Position numbers and translations under genes: made by a program. A stretch of DNA of 64,000 nt. Source: Gemmatimonadales bacterium (GTDB lineage Bacteria; Gemmatimonadota; Gemmatimonadetes; Gemmatimonadales; GWC2-71-9). This document shows positions 18,634 through 58,998 of the stretch, piece by piece. The DNA is taken from contig DASTFH010000151.1 in the NCBI GenBank assembly GCA_035708725.1, positions 3,783-67,782 on the forward strand, read 5' to 3'. The notes beneath the pieces were generated by a model. That model worked only from the letters and a program-made list of their open reading frames with translations, did not search any database and was not told the DNA's origin. Within the stretch, counting starts at the first letter, position 1. Each line of letters begins with the position of its first letter.

Positions 18634-18708
18634 GTTATCGCCCGCTGGCGCCCCTGCCCGGCGGGCTGTATGTTGTCCCCGAGGTTCGGTTTTTCTTCGG
18701 GGTCTGTC

Positions 18709-20755: not shown

Positions 20756-20759
20756 AGGG

Positions 20760-20910
20760 GGTCGTCGGTCGTCGGTCATCAACTGCACTGTCACTCTGAG
20801 GCTGCGAAGCAGCCGAAGAGGCCGGAGCTTGGTTGAGCTTCGGTCCCTTCGCTTTGCTCAGGGTGACAGACGCAAACCTCCGACGACCGATGACTGACGA
20901 CCGATGACCG
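20760..20910. repeat. Composite hairpin element, type A core (20790-20867), between imuB and dnaE2
   Basis: Left arm (GGTCGTC)2GGTCATC. Core GTCACTCTGAGGCTGCGAAGCAGCCGAAGAGGC...CTCAGGGTGAC. Right arm CCGACGA CCGATGA CTGACGA CCGATGA, an exact-type reverse complement of the left arm that contains the dnaE2 ATG (20904). Confidence 0.9.
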
Positions 20911-43259: not shown

Positions 43260-44078
43260 ATGATCATGATACCGGTTGATGCCCGGTTTGGCTCGCCGTG
43301 CGAGATTCGCCGCCCTTCACTTTCTTCCGAGGCCGGCTTGTCTCGTCGATTCGAGCCTCTGGCAGATGACCGACAGTCCATCCGGCTCGATGGATATGAC
43401 TACGCGCGGGACGGCGCGTATTTCATCACGATGTGTGTCGCCGGGCGCAGGCGCATCCTTGGCCAGATTCGCAACGGGGTCGTGGTGCTGAGCGAAGCGG
43501 GGCGCATCGTGCGGGACGCGTGGGAACAGTTGCCTGCCCATTATCCCCATGTGCGGCTGGATGAATTCGTGATCATGCCCAACCACGTGCACGGCATCAT
43601 CATGTTAACGGGCGACGGCCAGGACGTGGGAACGGGTCCGGACGTGGGAATGGATCGGAACGTGGGAATGGATCGGGACGTGGGAACGGACCGGGACGTG
43701 GGAACGGATTGGGACGTGGGAATGGATCGGGAGGTGGGAACGGATCGGGAGGTGGGAACGGATCGGGACGTGGGAACGGATCGGGACGTGGGAAAGGTAG
43801 GGGCGGGTCTAAGACCCGCCCCTACGGCCGCCCGGGGTACCATCCCAACGTCACGCGGCGTCCCGATCTCGACCCGCGTCCACGCATTACCGGAAATCGT
43901 CCGCGCGTTCAAATCCTTCTCCGCGCGCGCCATAAACATTCACCGCGGTACACCGGGCGCCCGTGTCTGGCAACGGAACTACTACGAACGGATTATCCGT
44001 AACCAGCACCATCTTGAGCAGACCCGCCGCTACATTCGGGAGAACCCGACCAAATGGGGTGACGACCGGTTCCACTAG
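43260..44078 (+). CDS. HUH-Y1 transposase homologue (IS200/IS605 TnpA / REP-associated tyrosine transposase-like)
   Basis: The family N-terminal block SIRLDGYDYARDGAYFITMCV, the HUH motif MPNHVHGII and the catalytic Tyr helix HHLEQTRRYIRENP are all present. The start is uncertain (an in-frame TTG at 43338 is possible). The linker carries an expanded repeat. Confidence 0.75.
   Translation: MIMIPVDARFGSPCEIRRPSLSSEAGLSRRFEPLADDRQSIRLDGYDYARDGAYFITMCVAGRRRILGQIRNGVVVLSEAGRIVRDAWEQLPAHYPHVRLDEFVIMPNHVHGIIMLTGDGQDVGTGPDVGMDRNVGMDRDVGTDRDVGTDWDVGMDREVGTDREVGTDRDVGTDRDVGKVGAGLRPAPTAARGTIPTSRGVPISTRVHALPEIVRAFKSFSARAINIHRGTPGARVWQRNYYERIIRNQHHLEQTRRYIRENPTKWGDDRFH
43623..43802 (+). repeat. Ten tandem 18-nt units inside the transposase CDS
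   Basis: GACGTGGGAACGGATCGG-type units, translated as (DVGTDR)n, between the HUH and Tyr motifs. Confidence 0.9.
43799..43823. repeat. Perfect 12-bp palindrome inside the transposase CDS
   Basis: AGGGGCGGGTCT-a-AGACCCGCCCCT, translated as GAGLRPAP. Confidence 0.9.
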
Positions 44079-45602
44079 TCACTGGCGACGCAGCGCCCGC
44101 TCTATCCCGGCAATCGCCTTCCGCACACTATCCGCGCCACTGTCCTTCCCGGTCCAGCCCGCGTCCACATCGGGCGTGATCCCCGCCGCCTCGTTGGTGC
44201 CATCCATGCGAAGGCGCTGGCAATCGGGTGCCCGCACCAGCAGGCCCAGGGCGCGCAGCTTGAGCGACGTGCCGCCATTGCTGTAGCCGCAGCCGGCGCC
44301 ATAGCTCCGGCTCCCGACAATCGTCGCGGCGTTGTTGTCCCGCAGCCGAGCGGCGAATTCCTCGGACGCCGAAGCGGAGCGATGATCCTGCAGGATCAGG
44401 AGCGGCCCGGTGTAGATCCCTTCCGTGGCACCATGCCATGATGCGGGCCAGATTACCCAGCCGTTCTCCAGGCCGTCCAGTGTGCCGGGTGGCAGGTAGC
44501 TGGCGAGCGGGGGCGCCAGCACGACGCTCGAACACGCAGGTTGACGACCTTCCCACACCATGTCGCGATCACACGCTTGCTGAGCCTCGGCGCGGAGCGA
44601 ATCGAGCCGAGCTTCGGCCTGCGCGATCAGGACGCGCTGGGAAGGTGTGGCGCGCGCGCGGTCGCTCGCGATGGCGTCGCGCATTTCGCCCAGGTAGTTC
44701 ACGTGCAACGCGTGGCGAATGAAGCCTCCGGACGCCAGATGCAGCGGCGTCGCGGTGAGCGCCCGCGCCATGGCATCGGCCATTTCGGAACCGCCGCCAT
44801 TCCCGGTGATGTCCACGACCACGGCATCGGCCCCGCGCCGCTGGAGGTCGCGCGCCAGATGGGCTGCGCGCTCACCAGCCTCCCGCATCACGGCCGCCTC
44901 CAGGCGGGATACGCAGTCGCCTGTGCAGGGCACGGGCAACGAGGTGCGATACGCCGCCCACGCCCGCTCGCAGCTTGGCCCGAAGTGCTCGTGCCCGAAG
45001 TTGGCCACACGCAGGATGCCAACCTTGCCGCCATCTGGCAGCGGAACGATCACCGCGGGAAATTCTGCGTCAGGCATCAGCTCAGCGCCGGCCGCATCGG
45101 GGAAGGGGAGCGACCAACCATCCGGGCGCGCATCGATGTCGAGGCCGACAGCGCTGCATGCCTCGGCGGCCGACATGTCGCGCCCCAGAGCGGGAGCCAC
45201 CGGAGTCGCCACGTCGGATGCTGCGATGCCGGCGCCTGACGATGCAGGTGCGGGTCCTGATCCTCGAATCCCTTGCCACCAGATCGCGGGCCGTACCCAC
45301 GCCCGCGTGTGGCCATCATCGAACCGGCGAACAAAGCTGCGAACCGTCCACGCCGCACTGAGCGATGTCCAGGAGTGCGCCACCCGCTCGCGAGTGGTTG
45401 AGTCCAGGGTGGGCAAGTCGATTTTTCTCCTGGCCACGACCCAGTCGAAGTTGGCATCGGCTGAGGCGAGATAATGCCTGGTGCTGTCATACTCGGCGAG
45501 CCACTGGCGGACGCGGGCAGGGGTGCGCAGGGTCAGCGCGGTGACCGCCAGCATGAGCACCAGCCCGAGGCCCAGGGTCAGTCGCAATAGTGATCGTAGC
45601 AT
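44079..45602 (-). CDS. S41 family peptidase (C-terminal processing protease-like)
   Basis: The ATG at 45602 gives a signal anchor. VVVDITGNGGGS and LLILQDHRSASASEEFA match the S41 Ser/Lys regions. Confidence 0.7.
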   Translation of the reverse strand: MLRSLLRLTLGLGLVLMLAVTALTLRTPARVRQWLAEYDSTRHYLASADANFDWVVARRKIDLPTLDSTTRERVAHSWTSLSAAWTVRSFVRRFDDGHTRAWVRPAIWWQGIRGSGPAPASSGAGIAASDVATPVAPALGRDMSAAEACSAVGLDIDARPDGWSLPFPDAAGAELMPDAEFPAVIVPLPDGGKVGILRVANFGHEHFGPSCERAWAAYRTSLPVPCTGDCVSRLEAAVMREAGERAAHLARDLQRRGADAVVVDITGNGGGSEMADAMARALTATPLHLASGGFIRHALHVNYLGEMRDAIASDRARATPSQRVLIAQAEARLDSLRAEAQQACDRDMVWEGRQPACSSVVLAPPLASYLPPGTLDGLENGWVIWPASWHGATEGIYTGPLLILQDHRSASASEEFAARLRDNNAATIVGSRSYGAGCGYSNGGTSLKLRALGLLVRAPDCQRLRMDGTNEAAGITPDVDAGWTGKDSGADSVRKAIAGIERALRRQ

Positions 45603-45762
45603 CGTGCTTTCTCCCGTTATGCCGTGACCGCAACGTGGCGGGCAGTACGGGGTTGAGCCCATGGAGGTTTCATGATGCTACGTCAGATGGGGAAGTCTTG
45701 TTCGGACAGCAACTTGGGAGCGGCTTTGCGGCGGTCGGTTCCGGCGCTATTCTTCTCCCTCC

Positions 45763-45834
<72 letters not shown>

Positions 45835-45836
45835 CT

Positions 45837-45940
45837 GGACAGGACGGGCAGGGCGAGCGGGACAGCCGGGCGGGCAGGTTATGCTGTGACCCGCGACCAC
45901 CTGCTCGCCCTGCTCGCCTTGTCTTCCCGCTCGCCTTGCT
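45837..45940. repeat. Hairpin array of 9-mers downstream of tRNA-Cys
   Basis: G-rich left arm GGACAGGAC GGGCAGGGC GAGCGGGAC..., 22-nt loop, then right arm (CTGCTCGCC)2 TTGTCTTCC CGCTCGCC. The stop of the convergent gene (45939) lies inside. Confidence 0.8.
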
Positions 45941-46985
45941 ACGTTGTCTCCCTCCCTCGCACCACCAGGCGCCCGATCGTATTGCGATCGGTCCCGAACC
46001 AGATGGCGCCGGTGCGGGCATCGTACGTCATGTGCCGGATGGTGTTGGGCACCTCGCCGCCGCCCACTTCGACGATATCGGTGAACGTGCCCCGTGCCGG
46101 ATCGAAGGCCACGAGCCGATTGGGCCTGAGCCCCGTCTCCGCGACCCAGATCCGTCCCTGGCCGTCGAGCGCCATGCCATAAGGCAGCGACATGGCTCCG
46201 CCGGGCAGGGCGTACTCCTTCGTGTCACCCGTCTTCGGATCCAGCCGGCCCAGATACCCGCGCGAATAGTCGCCATACCAGATCATGCCGTCATGCGTGA
46301 TGGCGATGCGCCGGGGACGGGTCCGCTCGTTCGGCAGCGCGAAGGTTTTCACTTCCATGACCTTCGGATCGATCATCCCCAGCTTGTTGGTGCCGAAGAG
46401 GTCGAACCACACCCTCCCGTCGGGCGCGACCGTGATGCCATAGGGCCGGCTACCGCGCTCCAGGTGCCAGAGACGGATGGCCCCGGTCTTCATGTCGATA
46501 TGTCCCACGGCGTTCGACTGCTGGGCGGTGAACCATGCATTGCCGGCAGCATCGAATGTCATGGTGTGGGGATCCTGCACCGCTGAATCGGGCATCATGT
46601 AGTTGGTGAGCTTGCCCGTCGCGGGATCGAGCCGAACCACTCGCCCGTTCCGGTTGCCGGTAAACCAGACCTCCCCCTTCGGGCTCACCACCAGGTTGTG
46701 CGGATGGGTGCCCTCTTCCACTTCATAGCGCTTGAACTGGCCGGTGGCAGGATCGAGATAGGCCACGTAATTGCCGGCCTGGCCCACGAACCAGACCCGC
46801 CCCTGTGCGTCGGCAAAGGGATCGCGGGGACGGCTCCGCTCCCACGGCACCGTCCACTCGGTGAGCAGGGAATCCGGGTCCGCAGATTTCACGGATTGAT
46901 CGACAGATGCCGCGGATGGGGTCGAGGCCAGTGCGGCTGACGATGCCAGGGCAGTTACAAGAGTAGGCAGCAAGAGCGTGAGCAT
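45939..46985 (-). CDS. Secreted beta-propeller protein, Vgb (streptogramin lyase)-like repeats
   Basis: Signal peptide and repeated PYGITVAPDGRVWF / PHTMTFDAAGNAWFT-type blades. Confidence 0.65.
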   Translation of the reverse strand: MLTLLLPTLVTALASSAALASTPSAASVDQSVKSADPDSLLTEWTVPWERSRPRDPFADAQGRVWFVGQAGNYVAYLDPATGQFKRYEVEEGTHPHNLVVSPKGEVWFTGNRNGRVVRLDPATGKLTNYMMPDSAVQDPHTMTFDAAGNAWFTAQQSNAVGHIDMKTGAIRLWHLERGSRPYGITVAPDGRVWFDLFGTNKLGMIDPKVMEVKTFALPNERTRPRRIAITHDGMIWYGDYSRGYLGRLDPKTGDTKEYALPGGAMSLPYGMALDGQGRIWVAETGLRPNRLVAFDPARGTFTDIVEVGGGEVPNTIRHMTYDARTGAIWFGTDRNTIGRLVVRGRETT

Positions 46986-47036: not shown

Positions 47037-47117
47037 CAGGGCGAGCAGGGCGAGCAAGACGAGCAGGAGGTCTACTTGCTCGCCTTGCTCGCCCTGTCGT
47101 CCTGTCCGTCCTGTCGC
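47037..47117. repeat. Hairpin array of 9-mers
   Basis: (CAGGGCGAG)2 CAAGACGAG CAGGAGG, loop, (CTTGCTCGC)2 CCTGTCGTC CTGTCCGTC CTGTCGC. The stop at 47072 sits at the loop. Confidence 0.85.
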
Positions 47118-47734
47118 AGGATTTCCAGCACCCGCCGCTCCTGATTGAACGTCAGCACGATCACCTCGCGCGGGGCAATGTCCAGCACGGTGTCGAGCAC
47201 CAGCCGAGGCGGGATCGCCGCCTTCCCCCGCCGGGCACGTTCCACCGCCTCGCGCTGGGCCCGGCCGGCGGAGATGCCGCTGTCCGCGCTGGTACGCCGC
47301 TCGGAGTCATCGTCGTCTCCGTCATGCTTCGTCTCGGAGCGCTCACGGCGGGTGAATTCCACCCGCACGCGCCGCCGTCCGGCGGGGACGTCAAAGCTGC
47401 GGAGCAGGTACATAGGCCGGTCGTGGCGCATGCCCGCGCCGCGCACAATGGCGGTGTCCGCCGCCTGCCCGTCGAGCGCCACCACCAGCGCGTAGCTGGC
47501 AAAGTGTCCCTCGCATTCGACCCGCTGGCGCATGTGTTCCTCGCGTTCCGCCAGCTCCTTGGCGGACACCTCCCGGCATCGTTCGATCCGCTCGGGGCGG
47601 GCGCTCCACGAGAGCCGAAGCCGTCCGCCTTCCTCCGCATGGAACGGAACCGGCGCAGACGACCCGGCCGCGATCAGGGCCATGGCCACAGCGCTCGCAG
47701 CTACTGCCAGCGCGCCGCGCGCTATCCCGCTCAT
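47072..47734 (-). CDS. Hypothetical protein with N-terminal anchor, translationally coupled to the cytochrome b fusion
   Basis: An ATGA overlap sits at 47731-47734 and the composition is coding-like. No motif was recognised, and the C-terminal tail is read from the repeat arm. Confidence 0.45.
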   Translation of the reverse strand: MSGIARGALAVAASAVAMALIAAGSSAPVPFHAEEGGRLRLSWSARPERIERCREVSAKELAEREEHMRQRVECEGHFASYALVVALDGQAADTAIVRGAGMRHDRPMYLLRSFDVPAGRRRVRVEFTRRERSETKHDGDDDDSERRTSADSGISAGRAQREAVERARRGKAAIPPRLVLDTVLDIAPREVIVLTFNQERRVLEILRQDGQDDRASKASK

Positions 47735-49296
47735 GTACCCTCGGCCTCGAGCGGCACCGGTTCACATTCGGTGTCCAGCTCCAATAGGGACTCGCTATCG
47801 GCTATGTCGAGCGAAGCGAGCGAGCCAGCAAATGCGTCATATGCGGCGAGTGCCGCGCCGAGCGCGCCGGGGGCACAGGTGATGACCGTGATTCGCCGGC
47901 GATCGACCCGGGCCTGCAACTCGGCCTCACGATCATTGAACAGGCGTTCGCCCAGCCATTTCGGGCCCTCCCGGCTCACACAATCCCGCGGCGGGCAGGC
48001 GCAGACCACCACACCACGCGCGCCGCTCCGCACGAATAGCTCGACCACTGATGTGTGCAGGTTGCCGGCGCAGCTCACCTGCTGGATCAAAGCGCCACGC
48101 TCGCTGAGTGCTGCGACGTGGGACGGCGGCACCTGTGAGCAGCAAATGGCGATGACCTGCCCCGCCGCGCTTCCAGCGGCAGGCCCGGCCAGTTCAGCCC
48201 GGGCCGCGGCCAGCTGGTCTCGTCCCGTCCTGCCGGCTGGTCCTATGCCCATCGGTGCGCATGACCCGGCACAGATGCCACAGCTGACGCACCGCGCCGG
48301 ATCGACATGGGCCACCAGGGTGGGCCGGTCGTCATCACGCTTGATCATGGTGATGGCGTCCCACGGACAATCCTGCGGGCACTGATTGCAGCCGGTGCAG
48401 AGCCGCGGGTCTACGACACTGGGCGCCCAGCGCCCCTCCCGGGGGCGACGAGTCCACTTCGGGATCATCACCAGGGCCAGCATTCCCACGAGGCCGATTC
48501 CCCACGTCTCTCCTGGTGAAAGCCGCTCGGCCAGCGGCAGCCACCACGCCACGAACAGGTCAGTTGGGGTGTGCGACGCCAGCACGAAGGGATTGGCGGC
48601 AGGTCCCAGCTCGGCAGGCAGCAGCACGGCGGTGAGGACGAGCGCACCAACGATGCTCCAGGTCACCCGCTTCGGCGGCATCAGGGTGGGGCGGGCCAGC
48701 CGGGAGACGTGCAGCCAGAGCATCGCGCCCATCGCCAGCGGCAGCGCGATGTGCATGAACATGTTCACGAAGAAGAACGCGCTCGGGACCGGACCATCGC
48801 CGGCGAAGATCCGGCCAAGCGGTTCCGAGAGGATCGGCAGCGCATCGAGAAGGCGTGCACCGTTGAGTGCCAGCCGCTCGCCGAAGCTGTCCCATGCCAT
48901 GACGAAACCGGTCCAGGCACAGGCGAATCCCACACCGAGCAGCAGCAGCCCTGAGATCCAGGCGAGCGTGCGCGAGCCCCAGCTCCGCGACTGCGCAAAC
49001 ATGCGGATCAGGTGCAGGACGGCGGCGATGACGAACAGGTCGGAGGCATAGCGGTGGAAGCTGCGGATCCAGCTGCCGAGCCAGGGGTCTGCGGCCATCC
49101 GGGCCACGGAAGCCGAGGGTGCACCAAGCCGGTAGAACAGAATGAGATAGACCCCGGATGCGATCAGGGCGACCAGCATCGCGACCGCGATGGTGCCGCT
49201 CTGGTGCAAGGGATTCCAAGGCCAGCCATAGAGCTTGGTGGCCGCGGCGTCGAGGACGCCGAGCAGGCGGCGGAACCCGCGTTGGAGGGGTGGCAT
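47731..49296 (-). CDS. Fusion: di-heme cytochrome b + 2x[4Fe-4S] ferredoxin + MvhD/FlpD-like Fe-S domain
   Basis: Two H-x13-H pairs sit in TM helices (FHRYASDLFVIAAVLH, MHIALPLAMGAMLWLH). The ferredoxin motifs are CTGCNQCPQDCP and CVSCGICAGSCAP. The C-terminal SCAGN...GVVVCACPPRDCVSREG resembles the hydrogenase delta-subunit fold. Confidence 0.7.
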   Translation of the reverse strand: MPPLQRGFRRLLGVLDAAATKLYGWPWNPLHQSGTIAVAMLVALIASGVYLILFYRLGAPSASVARMAADPWLGSWIRSFHRYASDLFVIAAVLHLIRMFAQSRSWGSRTLAWISGLLLLGVGFACAWTGFVMAWDSFGERLALNGARLLDALPILSEPLGRIFAGDGPVPSAFFFVNMFMHIALPLAMGAMLWLHVSRLARPTLMPPKRVTWSIVGALVLTAVLLPAELGPAANPFVLASHTPTDLFVAWWLPLAERLSPGETWGIGLVGMLALVMIPKWTRRPREGRWAPSVVDPRLCTGCNQCPQDCPWDAITMIKRDDDRPTLVAHVDPARCVSCGICAGSCAPMGIGPAGRTGRDQLAAARAELAGPAAGSAAGQVIAICCSQVPPSHVAALSERGALIQQVSCAGNLHTSVVELFVRSGARGVVVCACPPRDCVSREGPKWLGERLFNDREAELQARVDRRRITVITCAPGALGAALAAYDAFAGSLASLDIADSESLLELDTECEPVPLEAEGT

Positions 49297-49319
49297 GGGA
49301 TCGGGGCTTGCGCAAATTT

Positions 49320-49353
49320 ATCATACTGATATGATGTTTGACAACCCTTGTCA
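49320..49353. promoter_or_regulatory. Two palindromes in the divergent promoter region (candidate Rrf2 operator)
   Basis: ATCATA-ctga-TATGAT (49320-49335) and TGACAA-ccc-TTGTCA (49339-49353), in the only AT-rich patch of the 74-nt spacer. Confidence 0.4.
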
Positions 49354-49370
49354 GGCGGGTACCCGCTTCC

Positions 49371-49856
49371 ATGTGGCTTTCCAGCACCGCCCAGCAGGCG
49401 CTGCACGCCGTGCTGTGTATCGCCGGCAGCGGCGCTGATCGCCCTGTCCGCGTAGACGCGATCGCGGCCGTCATCGGCTGCCCGCGCAACTACCTCTCCA
49501 AGACCTTGCATGTGCTCACCCGGGCCGGGGTCCTTCGCTCCCGGCGCGGGCCTGCTGGCGGATTTCTGCTGGCGGTCCCGCCCAGCCAGCTGACGCTGGC
49601 CCAGGTCATCGCGCCCTTCGAGCCGGCCAGCGAGCGGCGATGCCTCCTGGGACGACCCACCTGTGGCGACGCCGATGCCTGTGCGGCGCACGAGCGCTGG
49701 GCCTGCATCGCCCGGCGCGCCGAAGAGTTTTTCCAGGCCACAACCATCGCGCACCTGCTGAGGGACTGGCCCCGCGCCGGATCCACGGCCCGCGCGCGCC
49801 TCACGTCCCTTCGCGGTCCCCAGACCAGGAGAGCACATGGACCAGTCCGTCGCTGA
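49371..49856 (+). CDS. Rrf2 family (IscR/NsrR-like) transcriptional regulator
   Basis: MWLSSTAQQALHAVLCIA..., wHTH YLSKTLHVLTRAGVLRSRRGPAGGFLL, cluster ligands C-x6-C-x5-C-x2-H (CLLGRPTCGDADACAAH). Confidence 0.8.
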   Translation: MWLSSTAQQALHAVLCIAGSGADRPVRVDAIAAVIGCPRNYLSKTLHVLTRAGVLRSRRGPAGGFLLAVPPSQLTLAQVIAPFEPASERRCLLGRPTCGDADACAAHERWACIARRAEEFFQATTIAHLLRDWPRAGSTARARLTSLRGPQTRRAHGPVRR

Positions 49857-50010
49857 ACCCGACGACCCGGTGACAGAAGTCCCGCTGGGCCAGCGCCTGT
49901 ATGACAACATGTACCTGCTGCTCGTCCTCGGCGTGCTCGTGATGCTCATCGTCTTCACGGCGTGGGGCGTGTGGGAAGTGCTCTCGATGCCGGTTGACCC
50001 CTTACCGTAG
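49837..50010 (+). CDS. 57-aa single-TM protein not in the ORF track (possible small oxidase subunit)
   Basis: An SD AGGAGAG lies at 49827-49833 and the ATG is at 49837. The peptide is MDQSVAEPDDPVTEVPLGQRLYDNMYLLLVLGVLVMLIVFTAWGVWEVLSMPVDPLP, with a TAG stop at 50008-50010. It lies directly 5' of subunit II. Confidence 0.45.
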   Translation: MDQSVAEPDDPVTEVPLGQRLYDNMYLLLVLGVLVMLIVFTAWGVWEVLSMPVDPLP

Positions 50011-50019
50011 GAGCGCGGG

Positions 50020-50625
50020 ATGCTGACCAGGATGCATACGGGGCTGGACCCGGCGCCGGGGGTGTGGTGGAAGCCGGCACACAAGGCCGAGAAGGTGTGG
50101 GTGTCGATCGCCTTCGTCTGGTGCATCATCCTGTTCGCGATGATGCCCCTCTGGCACTGGAAGGGCGGGCAGAATCCGTCCGGGATACGGACTCGCGTGG
50201 ATCCCCAGGCCTATTACAAGCGCACCGTGGCCTTTGCCAAGCAGTACGGCGTGGGTGACGACCGCGGGCTCCCCATCGTCGCGCCGCCGCCGGGCGCCGA
50301 TGTGTACCTCATGGCGCTCACCTTTCAGTGGTACCCGATCCTCCAGCTGGAGCAGGGCAAGGAGTACACCCTGCACATGTCCGCCCTGGACGTGAACCAC
50401 GGATTTTCGCTCTATCCGCTCAACATCAATTTCGCGGTGGTGCCGTCCTTCGATTACGCGCTCAAGGTGACCCCCACGGTGGCTGGTGATTTCCGGATCA
50501 TCTGCAACGAGTTCTGCGGGATCGGCCACCATACCATGGTGGGTCGCGTGATCGTGGTGGACTCCACTGGCGCTCCGGTCGCCGACAACCGCTCGGCGCG
50601 GATCGAGCACGGAGGTGGACTATGA
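50020..50625 (+). CDS. Heme-copper oxidase subunit II with CuA centre
   Basis: SD GGAG 7 nt upstream, one TM helix, and a cupredoxin with DVNHGFS ... CNEFCGIGHHTM (the H, C-x-E-x-C-x3-H-x2-M CuA pattern). Confidence 0.8.
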   Translation: MLTRMHTGLDPAPGVWWKPAHKAEKVWVSIAFVWCIILFAMMPLWHWKGGQNPSGIRTRVDPQAYYKRTVAFAKQYGVGDDRGLPIVAPPPGADVYLMALTFQWYPILQLEQGKEYTLHMSALDVNHGFSLYPLNINFAVVPSFDYALKVTPTVAGDFRIICNEFCGIGHHTMVGRVIVVDSTGAPVADNRSARIEHGGGL

Positions 50626-52400
50626 CCGCCGCGGCTACGCCCATGCCCGCCGGCTTCACACCGGCCTCGGCCCGCGCCTCGCGCACCTGTCCCGTCACCG
50701 GCCGTCGCATTGACCTCGGCGCGGAACGGCTGATCAAGTGGAACGCGGTGGTGTCGGTGGTTGCGCTGCTGGTCGGCGCGACAGCCGCCCTGCTGCTGGC
50801 GCTGACGCGCTGGCAGGCCGTGCACCTGCTGCCGGCCGTGTGGTACTACCGGATCCTCGGTGTCCACGGCATGAACATGCTGATCTTCTTCATCATCTTC
50901 TTCGAGATGGCGGTGCTCTGGTTCGCCGGGACCGTATTGCTCAACGCCCGCCCGGCCGCTCCCCGCCTTGGCTGGTTCAATTTCGGGCTGATGCTCGCTG
51001 GCGCGCTCCTGGTGGAAGCCATGCAGTGGAGCGGCCGGGCGGACGTGCTGTACACGTCGTATCCGCCGCTCAAGGCACACCCACTCTTCTACCTCGGTGT
51101 CATTCTCTTCGCGGTGGGCGCCCTCGCGGTGGTGGGCCAGTTCTTTGCCACGCTCACCATCGCGAAGCGGGAGAAGACCTACACTGGCTCGATGCCACTG
51201 GTGGTGTACGGCGCCATGACCGCGGCGATCATCGCCGTGATCACGCTGCTGCATGGGGCCATGATCTACGTGCCCACGTTCCTCTGGTCGGTGGGGATCA
51301 TTGACACCGTCAATCCGCAGCTTTACCGCCTGCTCTGGTGGGCGCTGGGCCATTCGGCCCAGCAGATCAATGTCGCCGCCATGGTGGCCGTGTGGTACAT
51401 GCTTGGGGCGCTCACCGTGGGCGCGGCGGTGCTCAACGAAAAGGTGAGCCGCTCCGCCTTCGTGCTCTACATCCTGTTCATCTCCATGGCGTCGGCCCAT
51501 CACCTCCTCGTGGACCCGGGTTTTGGCTCGGCCTGGAAGATTGTCAATACTTCCTACTTCATGTACATGGCCGTGCTCGCGTCCATGGTGCATGGCTTCA
51601 CCGTGCCCGCCGGCATGGAGCTCGGCATGCGCGTGCGGGGTTACACCCACGGCCTCTTCGAGTGGCTCCGGAAGGCGCCCTGGGGCGATCCCGGATTCTC
51701 CTCGCTGGTGCTGTCGGTGGTGGTTTTCGGCTTCTTCGGCGGGATCACCGGCGTCACCATCGGCACCGAGCAGATCAACATCATTGCCCACAATACCCTC
51801 CGCATCCCGGGGCACTTTCACGCCACCGTGGTAAGCGGAACGGCGCTCGCCTTCATGGGCGTCACCTACTACCTGCTGCCACTGATCTTCCAGCGCAAGG
51901 TCGCTTTCTGGAGGCTGGCGAAGATCCAGCCGTACCTCTTCGCGGGCGGGATGCTGCTGGTGGAATTCGGGATGACCTTTGCCGGCAGCTTCGGCGTGCC
52001 CCGGCGGCACTGGGACATCTCGTTCTCGCAAGCTCCGTTCGATGTGCCCTTCAACCCGATCGTGGACCTGTTCCTGGCCATGATCGGCATCGGCGGCATC
52101 CTCGCGGTGACGGGAGCGTACTCCTTCATCCTGATCGCGGTGAAGTCCGTCTTCCTCGGCGAGCGCGTCACCGAGTTCCCGCGCGGTGTCGCCGTGGCGG
52201 GACTGCCGCAGGGGCTCACCAATCCGCCGACCTATCCGGCGGACGCCGATGCAATCAATGAGCAGCTCCACTCGCCGGGTCGCGGCTGGATGGGGCCGAC
52301 CCCGGGGACGCTGGTGCTGGTCGCCGTCTTCTTCCTCGCGTTCGTGCTGTACTACTTCACCAACTGGAAGCTGCTGAGCTTCCTGTGGAAGATCGGCTAA
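50622..52400 (+). CDS. Heme-copper oxidase superfamily subunit I, non-canonical active site
   Basis: All six His ligands are present: GVHGMN (helix II), ALGHSAQQ (helix VI), SAHHLLV (helix VII), GHFHATV (helix X). The residue at His+4 in helix VI is Gln, not Tyr or Glu. Confidence 0.85.
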   Translation: MTAAATPMPAGFTPASARASRTCPVTGRRIDLGAERLIKWNAVVSVVALLVGATAALLLALTRWQAVHLLPAVWYYRILGVHGMNMLIFFIIFFEMAVLWFAGTVLLNARPAAPRLGWFNFGLMLAGALLVEAMQWSGRADVLYTSYPPLKAHPLFYLGVILFAVGALAVVGQFFATLTIAKREKTYTGSMPLVVYGAMTAAIIAVITLLHGAMIYVPTFLWSVGIIDTVNPQLYRLLWWALGHSAQQINVAAMVAVWYMLGALTVGAAVLNEKVSRSAFVLYILFISMASAHHLLVDPGFGSAWKIVNTSYFMYMAVLASMVHGFTVPAGMELGMRVRGYTHGLFEWLRKAPWGDPGFSSLVLSVVVFGFFGGITGVTIGTEQINIIAHNTLRIPGHFHATVVSGTALAFMGVTYYLLPLIFQRKVAFWRLAKIQPYLFAGGMLLVEFGMTFAGSFGVPRRHWDISFSQAPFDVPFNPIVDLFLAMIGIGGILAVTGAYSFILIAVKSVFLGERVTEFPRGVAVAGLPQGLTNPPTYPADADAINEQLHSPGRGWMGPTPGTLVLVAVFFLAFVLYYFTNWKLLSFLWKIG

Positions 52401-53281
52401 CAGTACCGTCCAGGAGGCGACCGGGCGCGGCGCTCGCGGCGCTGGTGGTGATACTGTGCATCACCGCGGCGTGGTGGGCGCTGGCGCTCTGGCCGGCTGC
52501 GTCCGCTACGCCCGGCTGGATCATCCGGTTTCGCTCGGTCTGCTTCGGAGCCGAAGCCAATGGGCTTCCCGATGCGGTGGGATGGGCGCTCCTGCTGGGT
52601 GAACCGGCGGGGATGATCGGCATCCTGCTGGTGCTGTGGGGTGGGGCAGTCAGGCGTGACCTTCGATGGGTTGCAGCACACCGGGTCTGGCGGCTGGTTG
52701 CGGCGATACTGGTAATCCTGGCTCTGGCGGCCTTCAGCGTGCTCGTGGTGCGTGTGGTGCGTGTCTGGATCAGCAGCCGGGCCGACTATACCGATACAGG
52801 GAGTGTCGTTCATCGGGTGAACCGGAACCTGCCGCCACTCCAGCTGGTGGACCAGGATGGGCGCGCACTAGTGCCGGCTGACCTGCGTGGCCGTACCACC
52901 CTCGTGACCTTCCTGTTCGGCCACTGCACCAGCGTCTGCCCGCTGACGGTGCAGGAGCTGCAGGCCGCGCGTCGCGAGTCAGGCCGGCGCGACGTGCACA
53001 TCATGGTCATCACGCTCGACCCCTGGCGCGACACTCCGGAGCGCCTGCCATCGCTGGTAGCGCACTGGGGACTTTCACCGCAGGATCGCGCGTTATCGGG
53101 GAACGTGGCTGATGTGGAGCAGGCGCTGGACTCGCTGGGTGTCGCGCGAAGCCGGAACACCGTGACCGGCGACATGGATCACATCACCGCGGTCCTCCTG
53201 CTCGATCCCGATGGGAAGATTGCCTGGCGGGTGGAGGGCAGCGCGCGTCGCGTGGCCGGGCTGCTCGCTCGCAGCCCATAG
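52385..53281 (+). CDS. SCO1/SenC-type copper chaperone fused to an N-terminal multi-TM domain
   Basis: The GTG start overlaps the subunit I end. About 130 aa with 4 TM helices are followed by a thioredoxin fold with FGHCTSVCP (CxxxC) and the conserved His in DHITAV. Confidence 0.7.
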   Translation: MEDRLTVPSRRRPGAALAALVVILCITAAWWALALWPAASATPGWIIRFRSVCFGAEANGLPDAVGWALLLGEPAGMIGILLVLWGGAVRRDLRWVAAHRVWRLVAAILVILALAAFSVLVVRVVRVWISSRADYTDTGSVVHRVNRNLPPLQLVDQDGRALVPADLRGRTTLVTFLFGHCTSVCPLTVQELQAARRESGRRDVHIMVITLDPWRDTPERLPSLVAHWGLSPQDRALSGNVADVEQALDSLGVARSRNTVTGDMDHITAVLLLDPDGKIAWRVEGSARRVAGLLARSP

Positions 53282-53305: not shown

Positions 53306-53347
53306 TCAGCCTTTCGCCTTCAGCCTTCCGCCCCCAGCCCCTCAGCC
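53305..53347. repeat. Degenerate heptamer array
   Basis: CTCAGCC TTTCGCC TTCAGCC TTCCGCC CCCAGCC CCTCAGCC. It contains the RND stop (53320) and encodes its tail AEGLGAEG. Confidence 0.7.
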
Positions 53348-56300
53348 ACAACCATTTCGCCCGTTCGCTTCCGGCCCAGCCGCTTCTGGAACGCGTCCAT
53401 GTAGGTGTACACCACGGGCGTGATGTAGAGGGTGATGAGCTGCGAGAATGCGAGCCCACCTACCACGGCCACGCCCAGTGGCCGGCGCGATTCAGCACCG
53501 GCACCCGCGCCCAGCGCGATTGGCAGCGTACCCATCAGGGCCGCCATGGTGGTCATCATGATGGGCCGGAACCGCACCCGTGCCGCCTCGAGGATGGCAT
53601 CACGCGCCGAGAGGCCCTGGGTCCGCTCCGCCTCGACGGCAAAGTCGATCATCATGATGGCGTTCTTCTTGACCAGGCCGATGAGCATGATGATGCCGAC
53701 GAAGGCGTAGACGCTGAGGTCCATTCGGAATACCACCAGCACGAGCAGGGCGCCGAATCCTGCGAAGGGCAGACCCGAGAGGATCGTGAGCGGATGGATG
53801 AAGCTCTCGTACAGGATGCCGAGCACGAGGTAGATCACGACGATGGCGAGGATCAGCAGCATCAGCAGCCCGCGCTGCGCTTCCTGGAACGCCTGCGCCG
53901 TGCCGGAGAATGCCGTGCTGATGCTGGACGGCAGCACCTCGCGCGCGGCGCCCTCCACTTCGGTGACGGCGGTACCGAGCGAGACGCCTTCTTCCAGGTT
54001 GAACGAGAGCGTGACCGACGGCACCTGCCCGGAGTGGTTCACCGTGAGCGGTCCCGTCCCTGGCGTCACTGTTGCCAGCGAGCCGAGCGGCACCGCCGTG
54101 CCCTCGCGGCCGGTGACGTGCAGCAGGTTAAGCGCCGACAGGTCCTTCTGGTATTCCGGCAGCAACTCCATGATCACCTGGTACTGGTTGTTGGGCGTCA
54201 GGATCGTGGAGATCTGCCGCGACCCGTAGGCGTTGTAGAGTGCTTCCTCGATCTGGGTCACGTCGATGCCAAGCGAGGCGGCGCGGTCGCGGTTGATGGC
54301 CACCTGCACCTGCGGGTTCTTGATCTGCAGGTCGCTGGTGACATCGGTGAGCCCCGGCAGCTCGCGCATCCGGGCTTCCATGCGCTGCGAGCCGGCGTAG
54401 AGCTCATTGATATCGGACCCCTGCAGCGTGAACTGGTATTCGCTCTTGGACCGCCGGCCGCCCACGTTGATCACGGGCGGATTCTGGATGAACACGCGGA
54501 GCCCGGGGATCGCCGAGATCTTCCGCGTCAGCTCACGTGCCACCTCATCGGCGCTGAGGTCACGTTCCGAGCGGTCCTTGAGGTGAATGAAGAGCGAGCC
54601 CTGGTTGGTCGAGCCCCGCCCACCGCCGACCGACGACATGAACCCCTCGACATTCGAGTCCGCCTGCACGACCGCGGCCGCCGCAATCTGGTGCTGCATC
54701 ATGTTGTCGAAGCTGGTCCCCTCGGCGGTTTCCGTGGTGCCGAAGAGTTGGCCCTGGTCCTCGCTCGGGATGAAGCCCTTGGGCACGATGCGCGCGAGGA
54801 AGAGCGTCGCCAGCAGGATCAGTGCGCTGAAGACCATCGCCATGCCCCGGCGGTCCATGACCCACGCCAGGCTCCGGTCGTACCCCGACGCCGTCCGCTC
54901 CCACGCCCGTTCAGTCGCATTGAAGAACCGGCCATGCTTCTCCTGCTCCGGATGGGGCTTGAGCCACCGGCTGCAGAGCATCGGCGTGAGCGTGAGCGAG
55001 ACGAAGCCGGAGACCAGGATGGCGACGCCGATCGTCACGGCAAACTCGTGGAACAGCCGTCCCACCAGCCCGCCCAGGAAGAGCACCGGGATGAAGACCG
55101 CGACCAACGAGATCGTCATCGAGAGAATGGTGAAGCCGATCTCCTTGCTGCCCTTGAGCGCGGCTTCCATCACCCCTTCGCCCTGCTCGATGTGGCGGAC
55201 GATGTTCTCGAGCATCACGATGGCATCGTCCACCACGAACCCGACGCAGAGGGTAAGTGCCATGAGCGACAGGTTGTCGAGGCTGTAATTCAGCAGGTAC
55301 ATCACGGCAAAGGTGCCCACCAGTGACATGGGCAGCGCCAGGCTGGGGATGATCGTGGCGCGGACGTTCCGGAGAAAGAGGAAGATCACCATCACCACGA
55401 GGCAGAGCGTGATGAACAGCGTGGTCTTGACGTCGGTCACCGAGTCCTGGATGGAGACCGACCGGTCATAGAGCGTCTGGATATCCACCGAGGCCGGCAG
55501 CTCGGGCTTGATCCGGGCGATTTCATCCTTCACCCGCTGGGCCACGGCGACGGTGTTGGTGCCGGGCTGCCGCTGGATGGCGAGCACGATAGCGCGCTCG
55601 CCGTTGTACCAGCTGGCGTTCTTGTTGTTCTCGACGCTGTCGATGACCCGCCCCAGGTCCCGAAGCCTGACGGGCGCGCCATCGCGGTACGTCACGATCA
55701 GCCGGCCGAAATCGGCCGCGTTGTCGAGCTGGCCGCTCGACTCGACCGAATACGCCTTGTCGGTGCCCCAGAGAATGCCGGTGGGGAGGTTGGCGTTGCC
55801 GTTCCGGACCGCCTGCGACACCTCGTCGATGCCGATGTTGCGGAGCGCCAGTTGCTGCGGATCGAGCTGGATGCGCACCGCATACTTCTGCGAACCGTAG
55901 ACCTGCACCTGTGCCACACCGTCGATGGTCGAGAGATGCTGCGCCAGGGTTGTCTGGGCGTACTCATCGAGCTGCTGCAGTGGCAGCGTGCTGGTGCGAA
56001 GGGCAAGGTAGAGAATGGCGCTGGCCGAGGGATCCACCTTGCGGAAGCTGGGCGGCAGGATGTCCTGCGGCAGCCGGCGGAGCGTCTGCGAGATGGCCGC
56101 CTGCACGTCCTGCGCGGCCGCATCCACGTCCCGGCTCAGGGTGAACTGCAGCGTGATGGATGTACTGCCCTGGCCGCTGCTCGACGTCATGGCGTCGAGG
56201 CCCGCAATGGTGGAGAAGGTCTTTTCCAGCGGCGTGGCCACGGCCGACGCCATCGTCTCGGGACTCGCACCCGGGAGGCTCGCGCTCACGTTGATGGTGG

Positions 56301-56427
56301 GATAGTCCACCGATGGCAGGTCGCTCACCGGCAGCAGCCGGTACGCCACGATCCCGAAGAGCAGAATGCCGATCATGACGAGCGTGGTCATGACCGGCCG
56401 GCGAATGAAGAGTCCCGCGATATTCAT
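53320..56427 (-). CDS. RND efflux transporter permease (AcrB/MdtB-like)
   Basis: 1035 aa, N-terminus MNIAGLFIRRPVMTTLV, 12-TM/2-loop architecture with conserved AcrB-family blocks. Confidence 0.9.
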   Translation of the reverse strand: MNIAGLFIRRPVMTTLVMIGILLFGIVAYRLLPVSDLPSVDYPTINVSASLPGASPETMASAVATPLEKTFSTIAGLDAMTSSSGQGSTSITLQFTLSRDVDAAAQDVQAAISQTLRRLPQDILPPSFRKVDPSASAILYLALRTSTLPLQQLDEYAQTTLAQHLSTIDGVAQVQVYGSQKYAVRIQLDPQQLALRNIGIDEVSQAVRNGNANLPTGILWGTDKAYSVESSGQLDNAADFGRLIVTYRDGAPVRLRDLGRVIDSVENNKNASWYNGERAIVLAIQRQPGTNTVAVAQRVKDEIARIKPELPASVDIQTLYDRSVSIQDSVTDVKTTLFITLCLVVMVIFLFLRNVRATIIPSLALPMSLVGTFAVMYLLNYSLDNLSLMALTLCVGFVVDDAIVMLENIVRHIEQGEGVMEAALKGSKEIGFTILSMTISLVAVFIPVLFLGGLVGRLFHEFAVTIGVAILVSGFVSLTLTPMLCSRWLKPHPEQEKHGRFFNATERAWERTASGYDRSLAWVMDRRGMAMVFSALILLATLFLARIVPKGFIPSEDQGQLFGTTETAEGTSFDNMMQHQIAAAAVVQADSNVEGFMSSVGGGRGSTNQGSLFIHLKDRSERDLSADEVARELTRKISAIPGLRVFIQNPPVINVGGRRSKSEYQFTLQGSDINELYAGSQRMEARMRELPGLTDVTSDLQIKNPQVQVAINRDRAASLGIDVTQIEEALYNAYGSRQISTILTPNNQYQVIMELLPEYQKDLSALNLLHVTGREGTAVPLGSLATVTPGTGPLTVNHSGQVPSVTLSFNLEEGVSLGTAVTEVEGAAREVLPSSISTAFSGTAQAFQEAQRGLLMLLILAIVVIYLVLGILYESFIHPLTILSGLPFAGFGALLVLVVFRMDLSVYAFVGIIMLIGLVKKNAIMMIDFAVEAERTQGLSARDAILEAARVRFRPIMMTTMAALMGTLPIALGAGAGAESRRPLGVAVVGGLAFSQLITLYITPVVYTYMDAFQKRLGRKRTGEMVVAEGLGAEG

Positions 56428-57536
56428 TCGTCCTCCTGTGCCACCGCGGCGGCAGGCTTCCGGATCTGGACCTTGGCCCCGTCCCGAAGCAGGATCTGGC
56501 CGTCCGTGACCACCTGGCTGCCGGGCTGCAGTTCCGCCGTGACAACGGCAAGGCTGTCATTGGTCCGCTGCACCTTGACCGGCACCATGGCCGCCGTGCT
56601 GTCCGGCTTGATCGCAAAGACGAACGTGCCCGATTGTCCCGACACAACCGCGGCCGACGGCACCGTGAGCGCGCTGTCCTGCACATAGAGCCGGATCCGC
56701 ACGTTCACGAATTCACCAGGCCACAGCAGGCCATCCTCATTGGGAAAGCGGGCCTTGAGCAGGATGGTCCCGGTGGTGGTGTCCACGGCATTGTTGATGA
56801 AATCGAGCGTGCCGATGCTGGCGTCCCCGCCGGCCGTCGGCTCCACCCGCACGGGCAGCGAATCATCGCGCCGCCGCTGGAGCTCCGCGAGATTGCCGGC
56901 CGGCACCGAGAAACGCGCAAGGATGGGCCGGATCTGGTTGATGGTCACCAGCGGGGAAGGATCCGAGGCGCGCACCAGGTTGCCTTCACGCACCAGCAGG
57001 CTTCCGGTTCGGCCGCTGATCGGCGCGCGAATGGTGGCGTACTGGAGATTGAGCTGGGCCTCATCCACGGCTGCCTGGCTCGCGGCCAGTGTCGCACTGG
57101 CGGAGAGCGCGTCAGCCCGCGCCTGGTCGCTCTGCTGCGTGGTCACGAACTCCTTCTCCGCCAGCGTGGCATACCGCTTCGCCTGCTGCTCGGTCTGCTC
57201 CGCTCGTGCCCTGGCGCCCGCGAGGTTGGCCTGCGCCTGCTGCAGCGCCGCGCGGAAGGGACGCGGATCGATCTCGAAGAGGATCTGGCCCTTCTTGACG
57301 TTGTCGCCCTCGTGGAAGGCCACATTCACGATCTGCCCGCTCACCTGCGGTGCCACCGCGACCGTCTGCACCGGCTCGATCGTACCGGTCGCAGAAAGCT
57401 CATAGGGAACTGGCCCCTGCTTCACCAGGCCGACCGTGACTGGCGTCGCCGCGGGCGCAGGCGCCTTGCCGTCACCGCAGGCGGCGAGCAGGAGGAGGCA
57501 GCTGAGAAGCGACAGTCGCGAGGAAAAATCAGTCAT
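56424..57536 (-). CDS. RND periplasmic adaptor (membrane fusion protein)
   Basis: ATG at 57536 gives the lipobox LLAACG. Also a coiled-coil hairpin plus the lipoyl/beta-barrel motifs GQILFEID and APISGRTG. Confidence 0.85.
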   Translation of the reverse strand: MTDFSSRLSLLSCLLLLAACGDGKAPAPAATPVTVGLVKQGPVPYELSATGTIEPVQTVAVAPQVSGQIVNVAFHEGDNVKKGQILFEIDPRPFRAALQQAQANLAGARARAEQTEQQAKRYATLAEKEFVTTQQSDQARADALSASATLAASQAAVDEAQLNLQYATIRAPISGRTGSLLVREGNLVRASDPSPLVTINQIRPILARFSVPAGNLAELQRRRDDSLPVRVEPTAGGDASIGTLDFINNAVDTTTGTILLKARFPNEDGLLWPGEFVNVRIRLYVQDSALTVPSAAVVSGQSGTFVFAIKPDSTAAMVPVKVQRTNDSLAVVTAELQPGSQVVTDGQILLRDGAKVQIRKPAAAVAQEDE

Positions 57537-58998
57537 TGCCTGGAGCCGAAGGTGTCGAGTCTTGAATGAGCCTGAGCGAGCTGCCGCCCTGCGTATCGAG
57601 CACGCCGGCATCGTGCGCCAGCTGCGCCAGCGAGACGTTCCATTCCAGGCGAGCCTGGATACGCTGGGCCCGCGCGTCGGCGAGCGCGCTCTGCGCCGCG
57701 AGGAGATCGAGCACGGTGCCGACGCCCTCCTTGTAGCGTGCCAATGCTACCTGGGTCGACTGCTCTGCACTCGCCAGCAGGTCTTCCGCCGTATGCACTC
57801 GGCGGGTCGCCGTCTGCAGCGTGTAGTAGGAACTGAAGACCTCGAAAATGACCTGCTGGCGGAGGCTTGCCGTTTGGGCCCGCGCCGCCTCAGCGGAATA
57901 TTGTGCACTCTTGAGGTCGTAGCGTCGGGAGAAGCCGCTGAAAATCGGGACGCTGAGGCCGAGTGAGACGGTGTAGTTGTCGGAGCCGTTCGGAATGCTC
58001 GTGGCGTACGTCCGGCCGGCGTTGGCGCTGAAGCGAAGCTCGGGCAGCAGCGCCGAGCGTGCGTCGCCGACCCGCGCGGCGGCGGCTTCGGCGTCAGCGC
58101 GAGCCGCAGCGAGGTCGGGACGGCCGGCCACGGCTGCATTGATGAGCTGCTGCACGCTGTCAGCGAGCACCGCCACCGGCACATCGGCCGCAGTGGTGTC
58201 AACATCATATGGCACGTTGGCTGGAAGCCCGAGCGCGAGCGCCAGCGCGCCTCGCGTCGTCGCGAGCGATCCCTCAGTGCTCTGCATGGTGAGCTGCACC
58301 TGGCTCAGCGCGGTCTTTGCCTGCAGGACATCGGCAATGGTGGCGAGCCCCACGCGGCGCCGCTCCTCCGCGGCCGACAGGTTGGCCTGGGCTTCCTTGA
58401 GTGTTGTCGCCTGTGCCTCCAGTAGCGCCCGCGTCGCCACGTACTGGAAGTAGCTCACCTCGATCTGCAATACTGCGGACTGAAGCACTGCGTTATGGGT
58501 AAAGTCGGCGGCGACCAGTTGCTCCCGTGCCGACCCCACGCGTCCGTTGCGCCCGCCGAAATCCAGCAGCAGCCAGGAGAGCGAGAGACTGGGCGCAAAG
58601 ACCGACTGCCTGACCGCGCTCCGGCCCTGGCTCGCCGTGGTCTTGAGGCGGGTGGCGTTGACGTCGGCGTCCAGTGTTGGTAGCCACTCACCCCGTGCCG
58701 ATCCATAACTGGCGGCGGCGGCCCGAGCCTGTGCCCATGACTGGCGGGTGGCGGTGTTGTTCCGGAGCCCGATATCGATCAGCTCACCCAGAGTCAGGTG
58801 GCTGGCTCGCTCCGCGATATCCGGTGGCAGCGCGATGTCCGGGGTGGCCGTGTCGGCGGAATTCCGTTCCGTCACCGACAGCGGCGGAATCCACGGCTCG
58901 GCAGGGCCGGGCGCGGTCCCGGCCACTCCTTGCACGGACGGAGTGCCAACGCACGCTACTATAAGGAAAGGGACGGCGCAGAAAAGGAGAGATTTCAT
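57529..58998 (-). CDS. Outer-membrane efflux factor (TolC family) lipoprotein
   Basis: ATG at 58998 (in frame), lipobox IVAC, two tandem TolC-type helical repeats. The ORF-track extension to 59427 translates a repeat element. Confidence 0.8.
   Translation of the reverse strand: MKSLLFCAVPFLIVACVGTPSVQGVAGTAPGPAEPWIPPLSVTERNSADTATPDIALPPDIAERASHLTLGELIDIGLRNNTATRQSWAQARAAAASYGSARGEWLPTLDADVNATRLKTTASQGRSAVRQSVFAPSLSLSWLLLDFGGRNGRVGSAREQLVAADFTHNAVLQSAVLQIEVSYFQYVATRALLEAQATTLKEAQANLSAAEERRRVGLATIADVLQAKTALSQVQLTMQSTEGSLATTRGALALALGLPANVPYDVDTTAADVPVAVLADSVQQLINAAVAGRPDLAAARADAEAAAARVGDARSALLPELRFSANAGRTYATSIPNGSDNYTVSLGLSVPIFSGFSRRYDLKSAQYSAEAARAQTASLRQQVIFEVFSSYYTLQTATRRVHTAEDLLASAEQSTQVALARYKEGVGTVLDLLAAQSALADARAQRIQARLEWNVSLAQLAHDAGVLDTQGGSSLRLIQDSTPSAPGND

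Follow-up and report, generated by a model that had tools for sequence, protein, structure and literature searches.

The 64-kb window analysed here, which is the whole stretch of 64,000 nucleotides taken from contig DASTFH010000151.1 of a Gemmatimonadales bacterium, has a G+C content of about 67% and carries a haem-copper oxidoreductase gene cluster (Table 1). Genes encoding subunits II and I of the enzyme are preceded by those of an Rrf2-family regulator and of a small membrane peptide, and followed by a copper chaperone gene. We are fairly confident that this locus encodes a nitric oxide (NO) reductase of the eNOR type, derived from the B-family oxygen reductases, together with genes devoted to its assembly and control. 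Our listing of open reading frames (ORFs) reproduced the coordinates of the initial annotation, which had proposed a candidate CuA-type NO reductase under Rrf2 control. This annotation had also described the regulator gene as divergent from the oxidase genes. Actually, it lies directly upstream of them on the plus strand. The true divergent partners are two minus-strand genes that start from the 74-bp gap and encode a 521-aa cytochrome b/Fe-S fusion and a 220-aa protein; this pair did lie inside the annotated region but had been left undescribed. Since successive genes overlap or nearly abut from the Rrf2 gene to the SCO gene, they probably form a single operon. For instance, the Rrf2 gene overlaps the 57-aa ORF by 20 nt and the stop codon of subunit II overlaps the start of subunit I (ATGA). 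No subunit III is encoded at the locus, as already noticed in the initial annotation. Metagenome contigs from JGI, retrieved by exact look-up of subunit I, show an identical gene order.

Table 1. Genes and regulatory features of the eNOR-type locus (positions in the 64-kb window)
Feature	Position	Strand	Remarks
Exported protein, 220 aa	47072-47734	-	N-terminal signal/anchor helix and beta-rich domain
Cytochrome b/2x[4Fe-4S]/FlpD/MvhD-like fusion, 521 aa	47731-49296	-	Pfam/NCBIfam scans, transmembrane prediction
Rightward putative promoter	TTGCGC 49308-49313; TATGAT 49330-49335	+	
Leftward putative promoter	TTGTCA 49344-49339; TAAATT 49320-49315	-	
Palindrome TTATCAT-N6-ATGATGT	49318-49337	.	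Candidate Rrf2 operator in the 74-bp gap between the divergent operons
Rrf2-family regulator, 161 aa	49371-49856 (ATG); 172 aa from TTG 49338	+	First gene of the operon
Single-transmembrane peptide, 57 aa	49837-50010	+	One predicted transmembrane helix; position as that of ba3 subunit IIa
Probable eNOR subunit II, 201 aa	50020-50625	+	One transmembrane helix and cupredoxin domain, full CuA site
Probable eNOR subunit I, 592 aa	50622-52400	+	COX1-type; six His ligands, Q247-Q248
Membrane-anchored SCO1/SenC copper chaperone	52385-53281	+	Three transmembrane helices and thioredoxin-fold domain

Subunit I matches the Pfam COX1 model (216 bits) and scores far under all NCBIfam equivalog cut-offs. 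Its closest solved relatives are B-family oxidases, namely that of Aquifex (7DEG) and the ba3 oxidase of Thermus thermophilus (about 1e-46). An AlphaFold2 model of the subunit (predicted template modelling score 0.84) retrieved ba3-type oxidases as best structural matches, none of the matches being described as an eNOR. Alignment with ba3 recovers the six canonical His ligands listed in the initial annotation: H82 (ba3 H72), H244 (H233), H293 and H294 (H282 and H283), and H398 and H400 (H384 and H386). It also places the Gln that had been read instead of the cross-linked Tyr, Q248 of the motif GHSAQQ, at exactly the position of ba3 Y237. The Tyr of the cross-linked His-Tyr cofactor that characterizes the B-family O2 reductases (GHP[IL]VY) is absent at this position. 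This Gln does not result from chance: the motif GHxxQQ was found in 120/120 closest database homologues and, among representatives at greater distance, in 35, and Q248 is invariant across 55 aligned members of the GHxxQQ family. As a separate observation, an Arg21-x-Cys23 motif at the cytoplasmic N-terminus of subunit I (residues 21-23; 50682-50690) is invariant across the GHxxQQ family, partly present in the GHxxQY relatives described below and absent in ba3.

The residue found at the cross-link position distinguishes the families of the superfamily: O2 reductases have Y at this site, cNOR and qNOR have E, sNOR and CuANOR have N, gNOR has D and eNOR has Q (PMC8756737, Table A4, modified from Hemp & Gennis 2008). 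The same study took Gln at the Tyr site as an inclusion criterion for eNOR (PMC8756737, section 2.7.1). A HMMER scan of 1.84 billion representatives was done for homologues of subunit I. The nearest full-length sequences outside the GHxxQQ group read GHxxQY; they are archaeal (Hodarchaeales, Thermoproteota), with 38-44% identity, and the next relatives beyond them are classical B-family sequences with GHP[IL]VY. In a neighbour-joining tree, the GHxxQQ sequences form a monophyletic clade (100/100 bootstraps) that is related to the B family, and the GHxxQY sequences form a basal grade to this clade. Subunit I falls in the GHxxQQ clade, outside the Tyr-bearing B family. The proposal of the initial annotation, i.e. 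a CuA-type NO reductase akin to eNOR, sNOR or gNOR, is thereby supported, the known eNOR family being the probable one.

The closest named matches (83-91% identity) are mostly metagenome-assembled genomes (MAGs) of Gemmatimonadales and Gemmatimonadaceae. The clade also includes the haloarchaeon Natrarchaeobius (P0124, 42% identity), genes from T. thermophilus plasmids (49-50%), Thermomicrobium roseum (51%), Defluviimonas (51%) and MAGs of Gemmatimonadota, Acidobacteriota, Myxococcota, Nitrospirota, Rhodothermales and others. As judged from these sequences, this taxonomic spread is that published for eNOR. WP_015717644.1, the Thermus sequence of the published eNOR alignment, did not appear in the cluster look-ups. 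Further traits reported for eNOR are found in the clade. Murali et al. described a His/Lys low-spin haem in some eNORs and the conservation of the equivalent of ba3 S309. The Thermus member has a Lys at position 400 (GHFKGTV), i.e. the His/Lys variant, and the S309 equivalent is kept in the family as S321. Furthermore, haem o synthase genes are present in the operons of relatives. The locus is filed under eNOR because of this combination of the Gln at the Tyr site, clade and published traits. The eNOR of Rhodothermus marinus catalyses the reduction of NO (0.68 per s) but not that of O2 (Murali 2024, PMC11214002).

Other families of NO or O2 reductases were considered and rejected. An sNOR was first expected, by reason of the norSY-senC gene order of ammonia oxidisers. 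However, sNOR and bNOR (qCuANOR) carry an Asn at the Tyr site and are separate clades in the literature, whereas the residue found here is Gln248. In gNOR, an Asp replaces one CuB His and the cupredoxin has no CuA ligands; here, the three His and a complete CuA site are present. Assignment to cNOR, qNOR or nNOR would need a Glu, a haem c subunit or quinol site, and a His/Met low-spin haem in the case of nNOR, instead of which the enzyme has Gln, CuA and His400. The ba3 type of B-family O2 reductase was discarded for lack of the cross-link Tyr.

Several points weigh against the eNOR assignment. It is based on the published diagnostic residue, the shared traits and the taxonomic overlap, the R. 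marinus and Magnetospirillum eNORs and curated hidden Markov models of haem-copper oxidoreductases lying outside the comparison. When a Rhodothermales MAG protein or the Defluviimonas protein served as query in searches for homologues, only close relatives were listed, with neither Rhodothermus nor Magnetospirillum among them. Likewise, the scan of genome contigs retrieved solely MAGs with at least 56% identity and no characterised eNOR. A single eNOR has been assayed so far and its turnover is low (PMC11214002). The nature of the non-haem metal, Cu or Fe, is not readable from sequence. The cluster is devoid of genes for haem A and haem O synthases. When most of the long ORFs of the window were compared with Pfam and NCBIfam, none proved to be a nir, nos, ctaA or ctaB gene. 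Finally, the IscR score of the Rrf2-family regulator is above its NsrR score, both being under the cut-offs, and NO sensing by this protein is a guess.

An enzyme of the eNOR family might also serve another purpose than NO respiration, such as NO detoxification under microoxic conditions or the conversion of another small substrate, NO turnover being then a side activity. The slow turnover of the R. marinus enzyme, just 0.68 NO per s (PMC11214002), the absence of nir and nos genes from the scanned parts of the window and the stress-type Fe-S Rrf2 regulator would be consistent with such a role, and detoxification was also raised in a preprint on Ferrigenium (bioRxiv 10.64898/2026.01.22.701106). 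However, R. marinus denitrifies to N2 with an eNOR as its sole recognised NO reductase (PMC11214002), and the most abundant nor transcripts published for estuarine sediments are those of eNOR. Moreover, Ferrigenium has three haem-copper oxidoreductases, and under denitrifying conditions the most abundant of their transcripts were those of eNOR (bioRxiv 10.64898/2026.01.22.701106). We consider a non-respiratory role unlikely.

The initial annotation had warned that a Tyr of helix VII (VLYILF) might provide a cross-link similar to that of C-family enzymes. The enzyme would then still be an oxygen reductase, this Tyr supplying the cross-link or radical function as in cbb3. The Tyr does exist: it is Y283, located on helix VII below the CuB histidines and invariant in the 55 aligned QQ sequences. 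In C-family (cbb3) oxidases, the cross-link Tyr precedes the HH pair by about six residues. Here, position -6 is occupied by Ile287, and the only Tyr is found at -10, i.e. ten residues (about 2.8 helical turns) before H293, where it aligns to ba3 F272. Furthermore, Y283 is equally invariant in the 4/4 sampled GHxxQY sister sequences that retain the helix-VI Tyr. Because it coexists with the canonical Tyr in these sequences, Y283 is not a replacement for it and, on the alignment, is not a migrated cross-link Tyr but a residue with another role, probably in a proton channel. No migration of the Tyr was reported in these families by Murali et al., and the R. marinus eNOR has no O2 reduction. The existence of the Tyr thus stands but its replacement role does not, and an oxygen reductase of this kind seems very improbable. 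More likely, Y283 lines a K-channel-like path as described by Murali et al., together with S321 (ba3 S309), Y259 (ba3 Y248) and H324 (at the position of ba3 T312), all four being invariant. In addition, E24 of subunit II corresponds to ba3 E15(II), which is at the entrance of the K-channel analogue of ba3.

Scarcely any weight can be given to an undescribed haem-copper family that would resemble eNOR by convergent acquisition of a Gln at the Tyr site: convergence of active sites has precedents in the superfamily (e.g., sNOR/bNOR and nNOR/cNOR; Murali et al.) and the reference eNOR sequence is outside our alignment, but the scan of 1.84 billion representatives gave one Gln-bearing clade only, its taxa are those published for eNOR (Halobacteria, Thermus, Chloroflexota-related groups, Rhodothermales, Proteobacteria) and it has the published side traits, namely the His/Lys haem variant, the conserved S309 equivalent and, in operons of relatives, haem o synthase genes.

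The other products of the probable operon agree in many respects with their first description. Subunit II aligns to ba3 subunit II (8e-18), its CuA ligands being H127, C162, C166, H170 and M173, and its sequence contains no CxxCH (haem c) motif. The full CuA site without haem c that had been announced is therefore found. The 57-aa ORF, described as a single-transmembrane peptide, has one predicted helix, and small ORFs are annotated at its position in Defluviimonas, Thermomicrobium and Thermus. The SCO chaperone fusion is also recovered, with three predicted transmembrane helices and an SCO1/SenC domain (89 bits), in which the CxxxC motif (C181/C185) and H266 are conserved. An alternative start located about 60 nt downstream would give a SCO protein of 278 aa.

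The regulator belongs to the Rrf2 superfamily (95 bits for a cut-off of 73). It reaches only 35 bits with the NsrR model (cut-off 182) and 59 bits with the IscR model (cut-off 208). The conserved residues C102, C109, C115 and H118 (numbering of the 172-aa form) follow the pattern C-x6-C-x5-C-x2-H, i.e. an IscR-like Cys3His set of cluster ligands, and they match the positions of the IscR ligands except for the first Cys, which is shifted by one residue. NsrR binds its [4Fe-4S] cluster by three Cys and a carboxylate. Hence, of the link with NsrR made in the initial annotation, membership in the Rrf2 superfamily holds; the score and the IscR-like ligands speak against an NsrR equivalog, and the divergent placement is incorrect.

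A candidate operator for this regulator is the palindrome of the intergenic gap, which is the closest match in the 64-kb window with 2 mismatches (one other site has 3, for a chance expectation of 0.13 matches). Related loci show it in the same location. Its core, ATCAT-N6-ATGAT, was found in 18 of the 88 fetched loci, as a single copy in each except L010 that has two. Because the palindrome overlaps the -10-like hexamers of the putative promoters in both directions, a single bound dimer could repress both operons.

The 521-aa fusion encoded on the opposite strand combines several redox modules. Its di-haem cytochrome b part has the four conserved haem-ligand His (H81, H95, H182, H196). It is followed by two [4Fe-4S] motifs (C300-C310 and C336-C346) with eight conserved Cys, then by a FlpD/MvhD-like domain in which four or five more Cys are conserved, among them C386, C409, C434 and C439. 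Five transmembrane helices are clear. A sixth hydrophobic stretch, whose helical nature is an interpretation, precedes the segment KWTRRPREGR, which suggests that the Fe-S part would be cytoplasmic. The 220-aa protein has no match in Pfam or NCBIfam, and its single-sequence structural model (predicted local distance difference test score 45) was too poor for a structure search. H67-M68-R69 are invariant in this protein, a partly circular result since the domain had been located by means of its HM[RK] motif, and C53 and C74 are nearly invariant. In L076, L079, L080, L083 and L084, a single ORF of 705-748 aa downstream of the SCO gene encodes the cytochrome b/Fe-S protein with the 220-aa domain at its C-terminal end, an extra transmembrane helix joining the two. 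Such fused forms exist in several phyla. L076 and L080 have lost the two conserved Cys of the domain but keep the His-Met-Arg motif.

From these data, we infer that the cytochrome b/Fe-S fusion and the 220-aa protein constitute an accessory redox module. It could be a dedicated transmembrane electron-input or energy-coupling unit of eNOR, which would connect a cytoplasmic or quinone-pool donor to NO reduction by bypassing bc1 or alternative complex III and soluble carriers, and which would be co-repressed with the enzyme in Gemmatimonadota by the Fe-S Rrf2 sensor through the one shared palindromic operator. This proposal is a doubtful one.

The neighbourhood of the eNOR-type genes was explored by tblastn of the window proteins against 83 related loci. 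Subunit II was detected in 81/83 loci and the SCO protein in 77, followed by the cytochrome b/Fe-S fusion (71), the 57-aa ORF (69), the 220-aa protein (49) and the Rrf2 protein (42). Like the sequence features and the clade membership described above, this conserved synteny is a direct observation. The cytochrome b/Fe-S pair is divergent in Gemmatimonadota; it follows the SCO gene on the same strand in more distant clades and in Defluviimonas, where the cytochrome b/Fe-S protein is annotated inside the operon. A preprint on Ferrigenium termed adjacent cytochrome b-[Fe-S] genes 'rather unusual', one of them having FAD/NADH domains (bioRxiv 10.64898/2026.01.22.701106). Our counts suggest that such genes are common in eNOR clusters and far more widespread than this preprint assumed.

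On two T. thermophilus plasmids (L087, 8986-11681; L088, 5986-8688), the eNOR homologue is followed by genes encoding an Rrf2 protein, a 65-aa ScdA (DUF542)-domain protein and a cupin. In its arrangement, this Rrf2-ScdA-cupin trio resembles the nsrRST system, which responds to NO. A NirK-like multicopper oxidase gene and a cytochrome c gene are also found near the homologue on these plasmids, and a cytochrome P460 gene in L087. This second and unrelated association with an Rrf2 protein supports Fe-S-based control, possibly by NO.

By homology with characterised enzymes, we infer the activity, metal content, regulatory signal and accessory functions that the locus would have. A periplasmic donor would reduce CuA of subunit II, from which electrons would first reach the low-spin haem (H82/H400) and, from there, the high-spin haem (H398) and the non-haem metal (H244, H293, H294). 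There, two NO would be reduced according to 2 NO + 2 e- + 2 H+ -> N2O + H2O. Since Gln248 replaces the redox-active cross-linked Tyr, the fourth electron required to split O2 would be missing and O2 reduction should be lost. Protons would probably come from the cytoplasm along the K-channel-like path (E24 of subunit II, S321, H324, Y259 and Y283), and therefore turnover could be electrogenic. The SCO protein would metallate CuA. The Fe-S Rrf2 protein would bind the palindrome and keep the two divergent operons repressed as long as neither NO nor an oxidant has modified its cluster. Lastly, the cytochrome b/Fe-S fusion and the 220-aa protein may offer a dedicated electron route to the enzyme from a cytoplasmic or quinone-pool donor.

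Several other features were noticed in the window. Beyond the 220-aa gene, an S41 peptidase and a Vgb-lyase-like beta-propeller are encoded at 44079-46985 (minus strand); Vgb-like sequences were found in 1/83 related loci and this adjacency is not conserved. Directly downstream of the SCO gene and on the opposite strand, an RND efflux permease (1035-aa ORF) and a membrane-fusion protein are encoded at 53320-57611 (minus strand). RND-like matches occur in just 2/83 related loci, and hence their adjacency to the SCO gene is not conserved either. About 10 kb from the operon, a 352-aa protein (39589-40647, plus strand) has a C-terminal amicyanin/plastocyanin-like cupredoxin domain and could be a periplasmic electron carrier. 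An IS200-like Y1 transposase ORF (43260-44078, plus strand), with a weak Pfam match to its C-terminal part, contains an in-frame tandem array (43622-43794) of 9.6 copies of an 18-bp unit encoding (DVGTDR)-like repeats. Finally, the region 18670-24068 (plus strand) encodes a RecA-like ORF, a 500-aa ORF without Pfam match and an error-prone DNA polymerase (DnaE2-type, 1258 bits), a layout that is that of the imuA-imuB-dnaE2 mutagenesis cassette.

The locus brings no new principle, being probably an ordinary member of eNOR, a known and biochemically validated family. However, eNOR appears to be among the most abundant NO reductases in nature, and its homologues are annotated in databases as 'cbb3-type' or 'b(o/a)3-type cytochrome c oxidase'. 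As a consequence of this misannotation, such genomes are scored as devoid of NO reductase and their N2O production is missed. The results indicate that soil bacteria of the Gemmatimonadota type probably carry a full eNOR cluster. Small additions to knowledge of the family are the conserved candidate operator of an Fe-S Rrf2 regulator and the breadth of the cytochrome b/Fe-S module.

Comparison with known systems helps to situate the different parts of the locus. Like IscR and NsrR, the Rrf2 protein has a winged-helix domain, three Cys for an Fe-S cluster and an AT-rich palindromic candidate operator over the promoter; it differs from both by scores that are far under the equivalog cut-offs, and its ligand pattern resembles that of IscR, not that of NsrR. 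The palindrome found here has no sequence relationship with the Thermus NsrR operator (CTTGACCNNGGTCATGG). The bNOR (qCuANOR) of Bacillus azotoformans and sNOR are also CuA-type NO reductases that come from B-family-like oxidases and have no Tyr, but they differ by an Asn instead of a Gln. The archaeal GHxxQY relatives (P0126 from Hodarchaeales and P0129 from Thermoproteota) share Q247, N250, E95, Y283 and H324 with subunit I. Unlike it, they keep the cross-link Tyr and therefore are presumably O2 reductases. A 'K family' is said to cluster with eNOR (bioRxiv 10.1101/592808), and it would be a guess to equate it with these relatives.

The T. thermophilus ba3 oxidase (PDB 1EHK and others) is the best sequence match (about 1e-45) and the best fold match (template modelling score of about 0.7). 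It has in common with the system described here the CuA site, the two-subunit core with a small transmembrane peptide and the equivalents of E15(II), S309 and Y248. Several residues differ, ba3 Y237 and V236 being replaced by Q, W239 by N, T312 by H and Y244 by V. Moreover, helix II has an invariant Glu95 in the present family and, in contrast with ba3, O2 reductase activity is expected to be absent. The operon of Ferrigenium straubiae encodes eNOR II, eNOR I, a haem o synthase, sco1 and a 'scaffold protein' (bioRxiv 10.64898/2026.01.22.701106). Both loci combine eNOR II, eNOR I and sco1 with a neighbouring cytochrome b-[Fe-S] protein, but the module found here has an MvhD-like domain in place of the FAD/NADH domains and is divergently transcribed. 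The R. marinus eNOR has haem As in both haem sites (PMC11214002). Compared with the eNOR family, of which the R. marinus enzyme is the characterised member (Hemp & Gennis 2008; PMC11214002), the locus of Gemmatimonadales has no haem A/O synthase gene and its operon begins with the Rrf2 gene. Otherwise, the two have in common the Gln at the Tyr site, the three His, a CuA subunit II, the relatedness to the B family, the K-channel-like residues including the S309 equivalent and a sco gene in the operon.

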